From assembly GCA_029882995.1 (NCBI GenBank), contig JAOUJV010000001.1, forward strand, positions 11,668-75,667: 64,000 bases of DNA. The letters are read 5' to 3'. Numbering within the stretch: position 1 is the first letter of the stretch; the number at the start of each line of letters is the position of its first letter. The translations under genes were made by a program, and so were the position numbers. This document shows positions 8,003 through 63,544 of this stretch, piece after piece. The DNA is from Gammaproteobacteria bacterium (lineage in GTDB: Bacteria > Pseudomonadota > Gammaproteobacteria > DAOVJZ01). The notes under the pieces were generated by a model that was not told where the DNA came from, made no database searches, and worked only from the letters and a program-made list of their open reading frames with translations.

Positions 8003-8377
8003 TTGAATCAAATTTTGGTAATTGCAGCGGGTGGGGCACTGGGTGCCCTGTTTCGTTTCTGGGTATCGGGAATGACCTACGCTGCATTTGGTCGTGATTT
8101 TCCTTATGGTACTTTGATGGTGAATGTCACCGGCAGTCTTTTGATTGGTTTGTTTTATGTGTTGTTGATTGAAAAACTGCCGGACACACATCTGTTGAGA
8201 ATGTTTGTTTTGATTGGCGTACTGGGTGCATTTACCACCTTCTCAACATTTACAATGGAAACATTTACCTTGTTTGAACAAGGCGCCTATATAAAGGTGG
8301 TTGCAAATATTTTTGCCAGCGTCAGTCTTTGTTTGATTGCCACCTGGTTTGGTGTTGTCGTGGGGAGACAGTTATGA
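8003..8377 (+). CDS. crcB: Fluoride ion channel CrcB/FluC
   Basis: 124 aa, four TM helices, N-terminus MNQILVIAAGGALGALFRFWVSG typical of CrcB. Confidence 0.8.
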   Translation: MNQILVIAAGGALGALFRFWVSGMTYAAFGRDFPYGTLMVNVTGSLLIGLFYVLLIEKLPDTHLLRMFVLIGVLGAFTTFSTFTMETFTLFEQGAYIKVVANIFASVSLCLIATWFGVVVGRQL

Positions 8378-8679
8378 ATAAAGCCGAAGTCACCATGGTC
8401 AGGGTTTACCTGACTGAAGCTGAAGCCCATCTTGAAACGCTGATGAAACGATTGCATGACTGGGAAAAAGTACAGGGTGTGACTGTGTTTCGTGGCATCA
8501 GCGGTTTTGGAAAGTCGGGCGATATTCATTCGGCAGCCTTGCTTGATTTGGCCTTTGATTTACCCGTTGTTGTTGAGTTTTTTGATGAACCGGAAAAAGT
8601 GGAAAAAATTCTGGAACATTTAAGCAAGGAAATAGAGCCCGGCCATATTGTGAGCTGGAATGCACAAGTCAATATTTAA
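8374..8679 (+). CDS. DUF190-family protein (commonly co-encoded with crcB)
   Basis: ATG at 8374 overlaps the crcB stop (ATGA). The ~100 aa product starts MNKAEVTMVRVYLTEAEA. The longer 8329 ORF is an out-of-context upstream extension. Confidence 0.5.
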   Translation: MNKAEVTMVRVYLTEAEAHLETLMKRLHDWEKVQGVTVFRGISGFGKSGDIHSAALLDLAFDLPVVVEFFDEPEKVEKILEHLSKEIEPGHIVSWNAQVNI

Positions 8680-8693
8680 TAAAAGTGATTTAA

Positions 8694-9974
<1,281 letters not shown>

Positions 9975-11620: not shown

Positions 11621-12523
11621 ATGGCTTCAGACAATAATAAGAAATCATCTTCAGAGAACGGCAAAACCGAGACTAAAAATCATCGCCGTACTTACGGTAT
11701 TCAGACTCCCGGGACCAAAGGTATTGCAGGAACAAAGCGTTATGCAATGGTTGTTGATCTCCGGAAATGCATTGGATGTATGTCTTGCGTAGTAGCATGC
11801 AAATCCGAGTTCGGTGTTCCTTTAGGTGTTTGGCGAACCTGGGTTAAGGTTTCAGATAAAGGAACATATCCAAATACAAAGCGGATGTTCATGCCGCGTC
11901 TTTGTAATCACTGTGACTATCCGGTTTGTGTACGTAACTGTCCAACTCAGGCCACCTTCAAGCATAAGGATGGTTTTGTGTTACAGCGATACAATCGTTG
12001 TATAGGTTGTCGCACCTGTATTGTTGCCTGTCCTTATAATGCACGCCATATTTTGCCTGCAAAGCGCAGTGACAAGAATCTTCCCTATGAAGTTGTAGAT
12101 AAATGCACTTTTTGTTTTCACAGAGTGAAAAAAGGACTGGTTCCTGCATGTGTTCAGGCCTGTGTTGGTGGTGCACGAATTTTTGGTGATTTGAATGATC
12201 CTAAAAGCGAAATAGCCAGAATTGTAGCAGGAGAGACAGTAACTGTCTTGAAGCCGGAGCTCGGTACACAGCCATCTGTTTTTTATATTGGTGCAGATTG
12301 GGAAATGATGGATGAGACGCACAGTTACAATAATCGAACAGTTCAGCTTAAGCAGGAGTTTAATGACTTCAAGAGAAACCATGTCGTGGATGGATATGGT
12401 GATATTGTTGAAGGTGAATCGACTATGCGTCAGGTTGGAAAGAATATGGGTGATTTCCTGAATTCAATACCACATAAGGCTTCTGAGGTTGTCAAGGCCT
12501 TTAAGAAACTCCTTTTTGAATAG
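11621..12523 (+). CDS. 4Fe-4S ferredoxin-type electron-transfer subunit of a CISM molybdoenzyme (TtrB/PsrB-like)
   Basis: 300 aa with four Cys clusters (CIGCMSCVVAC, CNHCDYPVCVRNCP, CIGCRTCIVACP, CTFC...C). Confidence 0.75.
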   Translation: MASDNNKKSSSENGKTETKNHRRTYGIQTPGTKGIAGTKRYAMVVDLRKCIGCMSCVVACKSEFGVPLGVWRTWVKVSDKGTYPNTKRMFMPRLCNHCDYPVCVRNCPTQATFKHKDGFVLQRYNRCIGCRTCIVACPYNARHILPAKRSDKNLPYEVVDKCTFCFHRVKKGLVPACVQACVGGARIFGDLNDPKSEIARIVAGETVTVLKPELGTQPSVFYIGADWEMMDETHSYNNRTVQLKQEFNDFKRNHVVDGYGDIVEGESTMRQVGKNMGDFLNSIPHKASEVVKAFKKLLFE

Positions 12524-62138: not shown

Positions 62139-62214
62139 GCGGGAATAGCTCAGCTGGTAGAGCACAACCTTGCCAAGGTTGGGGTCGCGAGTTCGAATCT
62201 CGTTTCCCGCTCCA
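62139..62214 (+). tRNA. glyW: tRNA-Gly(GCC)
   Basis: gcgggaatagctcagctggtagagcacaaccttgccaaggttggggtcgcgagttcgaatctcgtttcccgctcca. Near-identical to E. coli tRNA-Gly with anticodon GCC. Confidence 0.95.
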
Positions 62215-62256
62215 GATTTAAGTGGGGACAGATATTTCTGTCCCCATTCTGTTTAT

Positions 62257-62330
62257 GGCTGAGTGGCAGAATGGCTATGCAGCGGATTGCAAATCCGTGG
62301 ACCTCGGTTCGACTCCGGGCTCAGCCTCCA
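62257..62330 (+). tRNA. cysT: tRNA-Cys(GCA)
   Basis: Anticodon loop ggattgcaaatcc, T-loop GGTTCGACTCC, CCA end. 74 nt. Confidence 0.9.
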
Positions 62331-62549
62331 CTTTTGCCCTGACTCATCGGAGATGAGTAGGGTTGCCTTGACCCGGAAGGGTAAGGTACTCATAACGAAC
62401 CTCGAAGAGGTTCTATGAGCTGTCGCTCAATTACTCCCCCATACCAACCCTTCCAGCAAACATTGTCTACTGCATTCAATCAAATGTTAATGTAAACTAC
62501 GCCCGTCATCTGCAGCCCGGGTGGCGAAATTGGTAGACGCAAGGGACTT

Positions 62550-63242
62550 AAACATTTTGAGCACCCGTTTCGGAAACGATCGGTGTGAATGGAGTCAAAT
62601 TCGGGGAAACCTCAGCATTTATGATAGTGGCAATCCCGAGCTAAGTTCTGGATTTATTTTTACCCCTGTAAGTAGGGGTGAGGGCGTGGCAATTAGGACA
62701 TAGAAGACGAAGATTTTTTAAATCGTTATCTTTATTGTTGCCATTGATGTGGTCAAGCTCAAGCGGAATTGGCTTATTAAGCCATGAAGTACCATAACAA
62801 CATGCACATTTATGCTTAAATATCCCTTCTTTCAAGAGACGGTTCTTAAGCTTGAATGATTGAATGGCTAGTTCGTTATTAAGGTATTTTTCCAAAGGAA
62901 CTTTGGCAGGGAGATTCTTGCCTTTATTCCATGCTTGCCCCCTGAAATGGGATATATCTAATTCAAAGTGATTTATCGCTTTTTTGAGGATACTGTAATT
63001 GCCTCCGTAAGGAGATACATTGAGCTTTAATAATACTTGCCTAAGGGATGTTGAATTTTGTACAGCATTCTGAAGGGCTGTTTCAGTATATTTATAAAGC
63101 TTCATATGGATACTCCTTTATCCAGAAAAAGTGTAGAGACTTGACGGCTCCTGCCTAAGTTATGTGATATAGCATAATACGGTAAAGAGAAAGTCCAGAC
63201 CACAAACGTAGGAATACGGCAGTGAAAACTGTAGCGGGTAAG
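62550..63242 (+). mobile_element. Putative group I intron in tRNA-Leu(UAA) carrying an antisense HNH endonuclease ORF
   Basis: Insertion after U34 as in cyanobacterial/plastid trnL and Azoarcus tRNA introns. Candidate internal guide GAGTC (62592-62596) pairs with the 5' exon end GACUU with a terminal U-G wobble. The intron ends in G (63242). The structured GC-rich ends flank an AT-rich ORF. Confidence 0.5.
62641..63105 (-). CDS. HNH homing-endonuclease-like protein
   Basis: 154 aa with ELDHINGNNKDNDLKNLRLLCPNCH (HNH motif with a Cys zinc knuckle). Located inside the tRNA-Leu intervening sequence, antisense to the tRNA. Confidence 0.7.
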   Translation of the reverse strand: MKLYKYTETALQNAVQNSTSLRQVLLKLNVSPYGGNYSILKKAINHFELDISHFRGQAWNKGKNLPAKVPLEKYLNNELAIQSFKLKNRLLKEGIFKHKCACCYGTSWLNKPIPLELDHINGNNKDNDLKNLRLLCPNCHALTPTYRGKNKSRT

Positions 63243-63544
63243 AAAATCCCTCGGATGAATAATCCGTGCCGGTTCGACTCCGGCCCCGGGCACCATCTCT
63301 TCTTAAAACTCCACGATTAAGCCATTCCTGCTACAGTATTTTTTCGAATGGTAATTTGGCTTAAAACGTGTGAAACATGCAAATTTAGGCTTGGTCATGG
63401 CCATGTTATAACTACCACACAAAATACCATGCAATATAACGGGTTTACCCAACCAAAATAGTAGGTTATTATATACCCATATATTATTGCTGACAGTGGG
63501 TCAGCATATGATTTTGGTATATGAGATAACAAGGGGACAAGATT

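Follow-up and report, generated by a model that had tools for sequence, protein, structure and literature searches.

Group I introns in bacterial tRNA genes are textbook ribozymes that are thought to be almost always free of open reading frames (ORFs) and hence poorly mobile. An ORF-less intron in tRNA-Leu(UAA) was reportedly described by Vepritskiy et al. in 2002 in a deep-subsurface gamma-proteobacterium. Similarly, ORF-less tRNA-Leu(UAA) introns of Beggiatoaceae are noted in a passage of PMC4853749 that cites MacGregor 2013. Of 333 tRNA introns in complete genomes, no more than 12 carry endonuclease genes (PMC13011429). The only well-studied endonuclease of a bacterial tRNA intron is the sense-encoded PD-(D/E)XK enzyme of a tRNA-fMet intron (PMC3073962), I-Ssp6803I of Synechocystis PCC 6803, a homing endonuclease specific for a tRNA gene (PMC3073962, PMC3984707). 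An HNH endonuclease has been reported in a tRNA-Leu(UAA) intron of Bacteroidota (mSystems 2026, PMC13011429), a phylum other than that of the host considered here; neither the text nor the supplementary tables of that paper give its orientation or its insertion loop. Antisense endonuclease genes are known from myxomycete nuclear rDNA introns, where the His-Cys box genes of I-DirII (Didymium iridis S956-2) and I-DsqI (D. squamulosum L2066) run opposite to their hosts (PMC3073962, PMC9548176). No antisense endonuclease gene is mentioned in a 2014 review on group I introns of bacteria (PMC3984707). We found no description of a bacterial one in the open-access literature, and such a gene appears to be undescribed in bacteria so far. 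Here we analyse a 64,000-nt stretch of a gammaproteobacterial genome (the window; positions 11,668–75,667 of contig JAOUJV010000001.1), in which the tRNA-Leu(UAA) gene is split by what is very probably a functional, mobile-type group I intron carrying an HNH homing endonuclease gene, antisense, in its P6 loop.

The split gene occupies 62515–63295 on the forward strand. ARAGORN in intron mode places a 693-nt insert (62550–63242) at gene position 36, between U34 and A35, in the splice context gactt-intron-aaaat. The 5′ exon (62515–62549) holds the acceptor strand, D arm, 5′ anticodon stem and C32-U33-U34, and is 100% identical to the intron-less alleles of loci L135 and L136. The 3′ exon (63243–63295), likewise delimited by ARAGORN and the intron-less alleles, holds A35-A36, the 3′ anticodon stem, the long variable arm, the T arm, the acceptor strand and CCA. 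Joining the exons (35 + 53 nt) gives a canonical 88-nt class II tRNA-Leu with encoded CCA, whose variable arm, CGGAUGAAUAAUCCGUG, is specific to this gene. The ligated junction is predicted to read GGGACUU/AAAAUCCC or, written at another length, GGGACUU/AAAAUCCCUCGGAUGAAUAAUCCG. The initial annotation had put the interruption exactly at U34/A35, the classical trnL(UAA) group I site, had joined the same two segments into a canonical tRNA, and had given the insert about 690 nt and a final G (here 693 nt, with G at 63242); all of this holds. So does the conserved pgsA-tRNA-Gly-tRNA-Cys-tRNA-Leu array that it had recognised, as the upstream order uvrC-pgsA-tRNA-Gly(GCC)-tRNA-Cys(GCA) is that of the uvrC-pgsA-Gly-Cys-Leu array of E. 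coli. Standard tRNA scans run without intron mode did not pick up the gene; near the site they return only tRNA-Gly(GCC) at 62139–62214 and tRNA-Cys(GCA) at 62257–62330. The insert explains why standard annotation misses the UUA-decoding tRNA in genomes with this intron. A split tRNA-Leu(UAA) of the same architecture was found again in dozens of independent genomes, and in every bacterial locus it stands 3′ of pgsA-Gly-Cys. This recurrence is far beyond chance.

Sequence, predicted structure and homology all assign the insert to the group I introns, within the classical tRNA-Leu type 'Leu.3Ug'/IC3. The U34/A35 site, the compact core and the GNRA (GAAA) loops on P2 and P9 agree with the published definition of the 'Leu.3Ug' class (bioRxiv 10.1101/2020.01.27.920355). 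With permissive settings, the Rfam model Intron_gpI (RF00028) aligns P1–P6 at 62540–62842 (32.3 bits, E = 3.8e-6) and loses register inside the ORF; at the Rfam gathering score of 50 bits, the whole window returns no group I match. The copy in the window falls under the threshold probably because the 465-nt antisense HNH ORF in the P6 loop splits the model, and for the same reason the absence at the gathering score is not taken as evidence against a group I intron. ORF-less homologues (L019, L022 and L047), 73–77% identical to the window ribozyme with its P6 loop removed, reach 63.2, 57.8 and 57.2 bits, respectively. The closest ORF-less relative among the loci retrieved, L090, shares 86% identity with the ORF-deleted window ribozyme.

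A model of P1–P9, including the P3/P7 pseudoknot, was drawn on the window sequence and projected on an alignment of 56 distinct sequences. Over its 61 intron pairs, 93.8% of the combinations are standard pairs, and 35 pairs show double (compensatory) changes. When the 3′ partner is slid by 1–3 columns, pairing falls to 30–46%, and the observed measures were reached in 0 of 500 column shuffles. The 17 HNH-bearing introns by themselves are 95.8% paired, with 26 compensatory pairs. In the window copy all modelled pairs form, and there are 0 deviations at the 121 near-invariant columns (at least 95% conserved in the other 55 sequences). Covariation is heavy in P2, P6, P8 and P9; P3 covaries at one position. 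The group I hallmarks claimed by the initial annotation are thus substantiated by a P3–P7 core, found by RF00028 (P1–P6) and by manual folding of P1–P9 with covariation, and the conserved, covarying core argues against the possibility, also raised there, of a simple HNH insertion that inactivates the tRNA.

The elements of the model follow one another along the forward strand. In P1, exon CUU and intron AAA (62547–62552) pair with the internal guide UUUGAG at 62556–62561 (intron nt 7–12), as in the Rfam alignment. At 62549/62559 the pair is the U-1·G wobble, and neither it nor the two exon pairs beside it vary in any of 56 sequences. A different P1 had been proposed, in which GAGTC at intron nt 43 guides the exon end GACUU. 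That pairing is rejected, since in each of the 56 sequences the segment instead forms P3 with GGCUCC, and it covaries. P2 (62562–62587) is a hairpin with a GAAA tetraloop and compensatory changes in 8 of its 9 pairs. The 5′ strand of P3, GGAGUC (62591–62596), and its partner GGCUCC (63146–63151) in the comparative model are 100% paired, with A-U/C-G/G-C covariation at the one position. The Rfam alignment places J3/4 (AAA), P4 (62600–62606/62634–62640) and P5 (62610–62630), the last with a receptor-like internal loop, in 62597–62640, a region that includes the core 19-mer GTCAAATTCGGGGAAACCT; P4 is 100% paired and invariant save for one G·U/G-C position (n = 56). The 5′ strand of P6, UUCUGGAU (62646–62653), is at the same time the complement of the last HNH codons and pairs perfectly with the 3′ strand, AUCCAGAA (63120–63127); all 8 pairs covary across the family. 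P7 begins with G(A)GACUU (63136–63142) and closes with AAGUCC (63191–63196), forming the pseudoknot with P3; it is invariant and 100% paired in the 56 sequences, and its G-C pair beside the bulged A is the arrangement expected of the predicted guanosine-binding site. P8 (63152–63184) carries a tetraloop-receptor-like CCUAAG...UACGG motif and compensatory changes in 8 of 9 pairs. The P9 domain (63199–63239) of the comparative model consists of an outer stem ACC/GGU, 100% paired, and the hairpin GCAGU-GAAA-ACUGU (63219–63232), in which 4 of 5 pairs covary. The intron ends with the terminal guanosine (omega G) at 63242, the 3′ splice site, and a terminal G is present in 74 of the 74 tRNA-Leu(UAA) introns collected. 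The GAAA loops presumably dock into receptors, and the window intron is predicted to be catalytic.

The HNH gene lies at 62641–63105 on the reverse strand, within the P6 loop and antisense to the tRNA. Its 154-aa product had been read correctly as an HNH endonuclease of the opposite strand; it matches PHROG 10822 ('HNH endonuclease') over its full length at 8e-48 and keeps the invariant HNH residues. The stop and last codons overlap the J5/6-P6 5′ strand, and AAGGAG stands 7 nt upstream of the ATG. In ORF-less introns P6 is a plain hairpin of 14–99 nt between the P4′/J5-6 anchor and J6/7. The long introns keep the P6 stem and hold 474–492 nt in the P6 segment. Every bacterial HNH copy examined is antisense in the P6 loop; its stop and last codons reach into the 5′ strand of P6, and its start lies at a distance of 15–29 nt from the invariant J6/7. 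Among 5.8 billion proteins searched, 7,710 are relatives at E <= 1e-5. The best 120 of these are about 152–219 aa long, mostly 154 aa, with about 67–75% identity, and the named ones among them come mostly from metagenome-assembled genomes (MAGs) of Gammaproteobacteria; every close relative whose context was examined sits in an intron of this kind. The conserved pattern is DH...N...N...CPNCH plus four Cys, with H119, N127, N131, H140 and C100, C103, C136, C139 invariant in 30 sequences. An AlphaFold model (predicted local distance difference test, 83.6) has three helices in its N-terminal domain, followed by a flexible linker and, at the C-terminus, a ββα core (strands 116–119 and 132–135 plus a helix); comparison with solved structures, by sequence and by model, gave only weak hits, to HNH nucleases such as McrA, Gme HNH and Cap5. 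The ratio of nonsynonymous to synonymous substitution rates (dN/dS) has a median of 0.10 and a maximum of 0.14 over 12 usable pairs of 16 distinct intact intron genes. On this estimate of about 0.1, the gene is under purifying selection. Its product is predicted to be a two-domain ββα-metal homing endonuclease in a self-splicing-type element and, at 154 aa, is a compact candidate for a tRNA-gene-specific nuclease.

On the reverse strand, gene callers also return a 64-aa ORF at 63102–63296, which runs against the 3′ exon and the 3′ part of the ribozyme (its last half); the stop of this ORF and the HNH start share the letters ATGA. The ORF is probably spurious, being antisense to exon and ribozyme; in relatives, other frames are open. 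It could be translationally coupled to the HNH gene if the flank promoter discussed below were used.

The intron is not restricted to the window. Relatives were collected through the HNH protein (13 loci) and by scanning species-representative contigs, one genome per species, with the one exact 19-mer GTCAAATTCGGGGAAACCT, which gave at least 119 loci. At least 69 of the latter are tRNA-Leu(UAA) introns, mostly of Gammaproteobacteria, and both collections together hold at least 74. The expectation in the initial annotation that such an element would be uncommon in Gammaproteobacteria thus fails for the intron; for the antisense HNH gene it stands, in that the arrangement is unusual, though recurrent and widespread among environmental Gammaproteobacteria and phages. 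At least 50 of the tRNA-Leu(UAA) introns are ORF-less and 212–333 nt long, one of them from a cultured strain, Thiohalophilus thiocyanatoxydans DSM 16326. Introns with the HNH gene are present in Porticoccaceae, Azotimanducaceae, Thioalkalispiraceae, Thiohalomonadales, Aestuariirhabdus and 'Muproteobacteria'. A neighbour-joining tree of the ribozymes has two major clades; the introns with the HNH gene or a remnant of it are all in one of these, and no ORF is present in the clade with a short P6.

Some further relatives of the core were seen in the same scan. The ORF-less tRNA-Leu(UAA) intron of L112 is 414 nt long, with about 90 extra nt near the 5′ end (the core starts at nt 189 vs about 95) and a palindromic P6 segment of 99 nt; it may carry a small inverted-repeat element. 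The same 19-nt core occurs in tRNA-Arg(UCU) introns (L021, L054, L061, L065, L110, L119) of cultured Vibrio, Enterovibrio, Psychromonas and Celerinatantimonas and, for L054, of a Pseudomonadota MAG; that of L021 scores 61.9 bits on RF00028. It also occurs in tRNA-Ile, tRNA-Met and tRNA-Arg genes of Rhodobacterales, Saccharibacteria and others.

The conservation of the HNH gene does not follow its hosts. Over the same host pairs, HNH identity is 63–81% (median 70.8%) vs 53–74% for PgsA (median 58.5%), without correlation between the two (Spearman -0.18, p = 0.18). Decay is seen at several loci. For instance, the HNH gene of L082 is frameshifted, that of L125 starts with ATA instead of ATG, the 475-nt intron of L087 holds only N-terminal HNH fragments, and in L044, L076, L079, L089 and L090 nothing but a short piece of the HNH 3′ end is left in the P6 loop. 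In these comparisons, stronger conservation than that of PgsA, no correlation with the host, and decay or loss in some lineages all agree with a mobile homing endonuclease.

The same ribozyme core is also found in tRNA-Leu genes of phage tRNA arrays, where the HNH protein is 44–59% identical and occurs in three layouts. It can be antisense in P6 (L147, L151 and L145), or sense and upstream of P3, in P1/P2 (L149 and the 595-kb phage LR756511, L143). Alternatively, it can be free-standing, as in L154, where an HNH gene at 8254–8754 (54% identical, on the tRNA strand) lies directly upstream of a tRNA-Leu(UAA) gene at 8788–9075 with a 202-nt ORF-less intron. This last layout may represent a precursor or else an instance of 'collaborative homing'. 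In L145 (1159–1960) the antisense HNH gene, 45% identical, is in P6 of a tRNA-Leu(UAG), which suggests that the element moved to another isoacceptor. The pattern fits a free-standing phage HNH lineage that would have repeatedly invaded an older ORF-less intron, then spread and decayed. Split tRNA genes can be clustered in such arrays: the viral array of L164 (5401–7261) has split Arg(UCU), Met(CAU) and Leu(UAA) genes side by side, each with the core 19-mer, and those of L150 (3526–5058) and L161 (784–2316) have split Arg(UCU) and Leu(UAA) genes and a tRNA of anticodon tca with a 189-nt insert.

Whether the host relies on the split gene depends on other copies of the tRNA. UUA makes up 17–19 per 1000 codons, or 18–20% of Leu codons, in the long ORFs of the window, so a tRNA-Leu(UAA) is needed, and there is no second complete gene in the 64-kb window or in the 10 kb upstream. 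Dependence of the host on splicing, raised as a question in the initial annotation, is likely on these sequence grounds. The identical allele of the window was found on 7 metagenome contigs, and an intron-less junction with the variable arm of the window lineage on five contigs. Two of the latter (L135 and L136) have exons 100% identical to those of the window and come from the same sample series as the intron-bearing contigs. They belong to another organism because their pgsA DNA is only 66% identical to that of the window. The identical intron-less exons mean that potential homing targets co-occur with the intron. Intron-less alleles of relatives, as suggested at the outset, thus exist in a co-occurring organism and were not found in the same species. 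In L135 (Ga0224506_10000012), copies of the tRNA 3′ end, 25–29 nt long, stand 3′ of the intron-less allele, which occupies 2110–2197, and lie at 2347–2371, 2518–2542 and 2689–2717, with a spacing of about 171 nt. They may be tandem attachment-site-like repeats or an array seeded by the tRNA end.

One other tRNA-Leu(UAA) sequence is present in the window, at 160–218 on the forward strand. It was considered as a second gene and rejected, being an orphan 3′ half of a different tRNA-Leu(UAA), without a 5′ half, at an island junction. It opens in the uninterrupted anticodon loop (aCTT/AAAATCCCT...CCA), is 81–84% identical to the 3′ exon of the split gene, and forms the left edge of an AT-rich insert of about 5.8 kb (219 to about 5900) between ftsK and lolA. 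The insert interrupts the conserved ftsK-lolA-rarA-serS order and encodes a 961-aa Y4jQ-family protein, a receiver-like protein and a receiver/PNP_UDP-like protein. The orphan half looks like the attachment-site remnant of an element integrating at the anticodon loop of tRNA-Leu(UAA). The intron would disrupt such an attachment site.

Two features of the tRNA array itself may be recorded here. The spacer between tRNA-Cys and tRNA-Leu (62331–62514) is 184 nt long in the window vs about 60 nt in the relatives L008–L013; it has several strong hairpins (minimum free energy -54.5 kcal/mol) and no other copy in the window, and could be a small insertion or a processing element. Between tRNA-Gly and tRNA-Cys, at 62221–62248 on the forward strand, a terminator-like hairpin with a 12-bp stem followed by CTGTTTAT falls inside what is expected to be a single tRNA operon.

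The HNH gene cannot be read from the pre-tRNA or the excised intron and must therefore be transcribed from a promoter of its own on the opposite strand. A candidate built-in promoter, TAGGCA-16-TACACT (8/12), lies at 63130–63157 on the reverse strand, its putative -10 element ending 24 nt upstream of the HNH ATG. A relaxed scan puts the end of the motif 15–29 nt before the start codon in 16 of the 18 introns with an HNH gene that were scorable. It is the reverse complement of the invariant J6/7-P7-P3′-P8 core and, since this is the catalytic core, it is equally present in ORF-less introns. Its role as the HNH promoter is a hypothesis, inseparable from ribozyme conservation. A standard promoter scan returned no site inside the intron, the motif being under its threshold. 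The best consensus is a promoter-like site in the flank, CTGTCA-17-TATAAT (10/12), at 63468–63496 on the reverse strand and 362 nt upstream of the ATG. Because it is in the host flank, where other hosts have no positional counterpart, it is not portable with the intron. A terminator-like hairpin inside the intron on the tRNA strand (62905–62922) might be taken to block tRNA-Leu expression. This reading was rejected: the T-run reflects a coding constraint of the invariant WNKG motif, relatives do not conserve the stem, and such sites are as frequent as shuffling predicts.

It is conceivable, though doubtful, that the antisense layout is itself an adaptation. The reverse complement of the ribozyme core would then act as a promoter that travels with the intron, the complement of the P6 stem would provide a ribosome-binding region for the endonuclease gene 15–29 nt further on, the element would shuttle between phage and chromosome, and the same HNH lineage would have colonised the intron at least twice, antisense in P6 and sense in P1/P2. 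If so, selection on the ribozyme would automatically maintain expression of the endonuclease, production of the enzyme would not be tied to the heavily transcribed tRNA operon, and ribosomes would never cross the folding ribozyme.

The proposed course of events, read from sequence and comparative structure for the splicing steps, would begin with transcription of the tRNA operon downstream of pgsA and folding of the intron. P1 would present the U34·G wobble, and exogenous guanosine bound in P7 would attack the 5′ splice site. The freed 3′-OH of U34 would then attack after the terminal G, joining the exons into a UUA-reading tRNA. The HNH gene would be transcribed from its own promoter on the opposite strand, either the weak motif in the ribozyme core or the flank promoter. 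Its product would most likely nick or cut intron-less tRNA-Leu(UAA) genes near the insertion site, and repair would copy the intron with its gene (homing). In the longer run, an older ORF-less intron would have been invaded, would have spread across hosts, probably via phage tRNA arrays, and would have kept its ribozyme through decay and deletion of the HNH gene.

Several observations weigh against a functional, mobile-type intron with an antisense homing endonuclease. With the ORF in place the window copy scores under the Rfam gathering threshold (32.3 vs 50 bits), and P4, P5 and P7 have no compensatory change, so that they neither support nor contradict the model. The Pfam matches to HNH_3 and HNH, 20.2 and 18.9 bits, are under their cut-offs of 24.8 and 21.4, and neither a sequence search of solved structures nor a Foldseek comparison of the model with the PDB gave a significant match. 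Since dS is saturated in 108 of 120 pairs, the dN/dS estimate rests on 12. The ribozyme tree is a neighbour-joining tree without bootstrap, and the scan of relatives was limited to the exact 19-mer matches listed. The junction scan found no intron-less allele of the same species, only alleles of a different organism, and ongoing homing was not observed. Nor was a convincing promoter found for the HNH gene, the internal 8/12 candidate being an unavoidable by-product of ribozyme conservation.

The low Rfam score would also follow if a free-standing selfish HNH gene had killed an old intron, leaving the tRNA-Leu as a pseudogene with its work done by another tRNA-Leu(UAA); the orphan half at 160–218 indicates that another such sequence exists in the genome. 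However, that half lacks its 5′ part and marks the island junction of ftsK and lolA, and no second complete gene was found in the 64-kb window or the 10 kb upstream. A dead intron is also at odds with exons 100% identical to functional-looking intron-less alleles, with 0 deviations at 121 conserved columns, and with a pairing of 95.8%, including 26 compensatory pairs, in the HNH-bearing ribozymes of hosts that share 53–74% identity in PgsA. We regard a pseudogene as highly improbable. An HNH protein that is not, or never was, homing and is kept in a functional intron for the benefit of the host is also unlikely, though less remote. It might cut intron-less tRNA-Leu(UAA) or attP sequences of phages and integrative elements, the intron at the same time disrupting their attachment site in the anticodon loop. 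Strong purifying selection and long-term retention, fixation of the element on all 7 contigs of the population, the tRNA-Leu(UAA) genes in phage tRNA arrays and the fragment from the anticodon loop at the island junction, which implies that elements use this sequence, would all suit such a role. Repeated decay and loss of the HNH gene in related introns is nevertheless the signature of a selfish homing gene, and its distribution is uncoupled from host phylogeny. The slimmest chance is given to purely vertical descent of intron and HNH gene in Gammaproteobacteria, with the endonuclease an inactive relic. The constant position 3′ of pgsA-Gly-Cys in every bacterial locus agrees with it, but is equally predicted by homing to a single target site. 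A relic would not be expected to have a dN/dS of about 0.1 with invariant catalytic and zinc residues, to be more conserved than the essential PgsA and uncorrelated with it, or to have copies 53–59% identical in phage tRNA arrays. The functional, mobile-type intron is thus strongly preferred.

Compared with described systems, the functional, mobile-type intron proposed here is classical in its ribozyme. It shares with the tRNA-Leu(UAA) introns of cyanobacteria and plastids the gene, the U34/A35 site (CUU/a...g/AAAA), the 5′ U·G pair and the terminal G; those are about 200–300 nt long and without an ORF, whereas the window intron is gammaproteobacterial and has 693 nt with a protein gene in P6. 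The compact core of J3/4-P4-P5 and J6/7-P7 presumably resembles those of the Anabaena and Azoarcus introns. The ORF-less introns of Gammaproteobacteria have gene, site and ribozyme as in the window and lack the endonuclease gene, some with a 3′ remnant of it. The I-Ssp6803I intron is likewise a bacterial group I intron in a tRNA anticodon loop with a homing endonuclease. Unlike the window HNH, however, its PD-(D/E)XK enzyme is encoded in sense, in P1, overlapping P1/P2. Closer in protein type are I-HmuI (SPO1), I-BasI and I-PfoP3I, which also join a ββα-metal HNH domain to a DNA-binding module and are encoded in an intron loop (PMC3428280). These are sense-encoded in introns of protein-coding genes, while the window protein has its HNH domain at the C-terminus and a three-helix domain at the N-terminus. 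The full-length architecture is common to the window HNH and its free-standing phage relatives. I-DirII and I-DsqI share with it the peripheral loop, the opposite strand, the need of an own promoter and the problem of antisense interference. Their eukaryotic setting, with a Pol II promoter, a spliceosomal intron, polyadenylation, an rRNA host and P9/P2 loops, has no counterpart in the window, and the separation of nucleolus and nucleoplasm available to their hosts is unavailable to a bacterium. The window HNH thus resembles this group in gene orientation only and is not a member of it.

The intron class is a classical one, and what appears to be new is a conserved antisense HNH gene in the P6 loop, of a large uncharted family shared with phages. 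The window copy is one of a large population, so far uncharted, that extends over uncultured Gammaproteobacteria and phage tRNA arrays; this single intron family displays every stage in the life cycle of a homing endonuclease. The locus also poses for a bacterial tRNA gene the question posed by the nuclear rDNA introns, namely how an antisense gene is transcribed without interference with an essential RNA.

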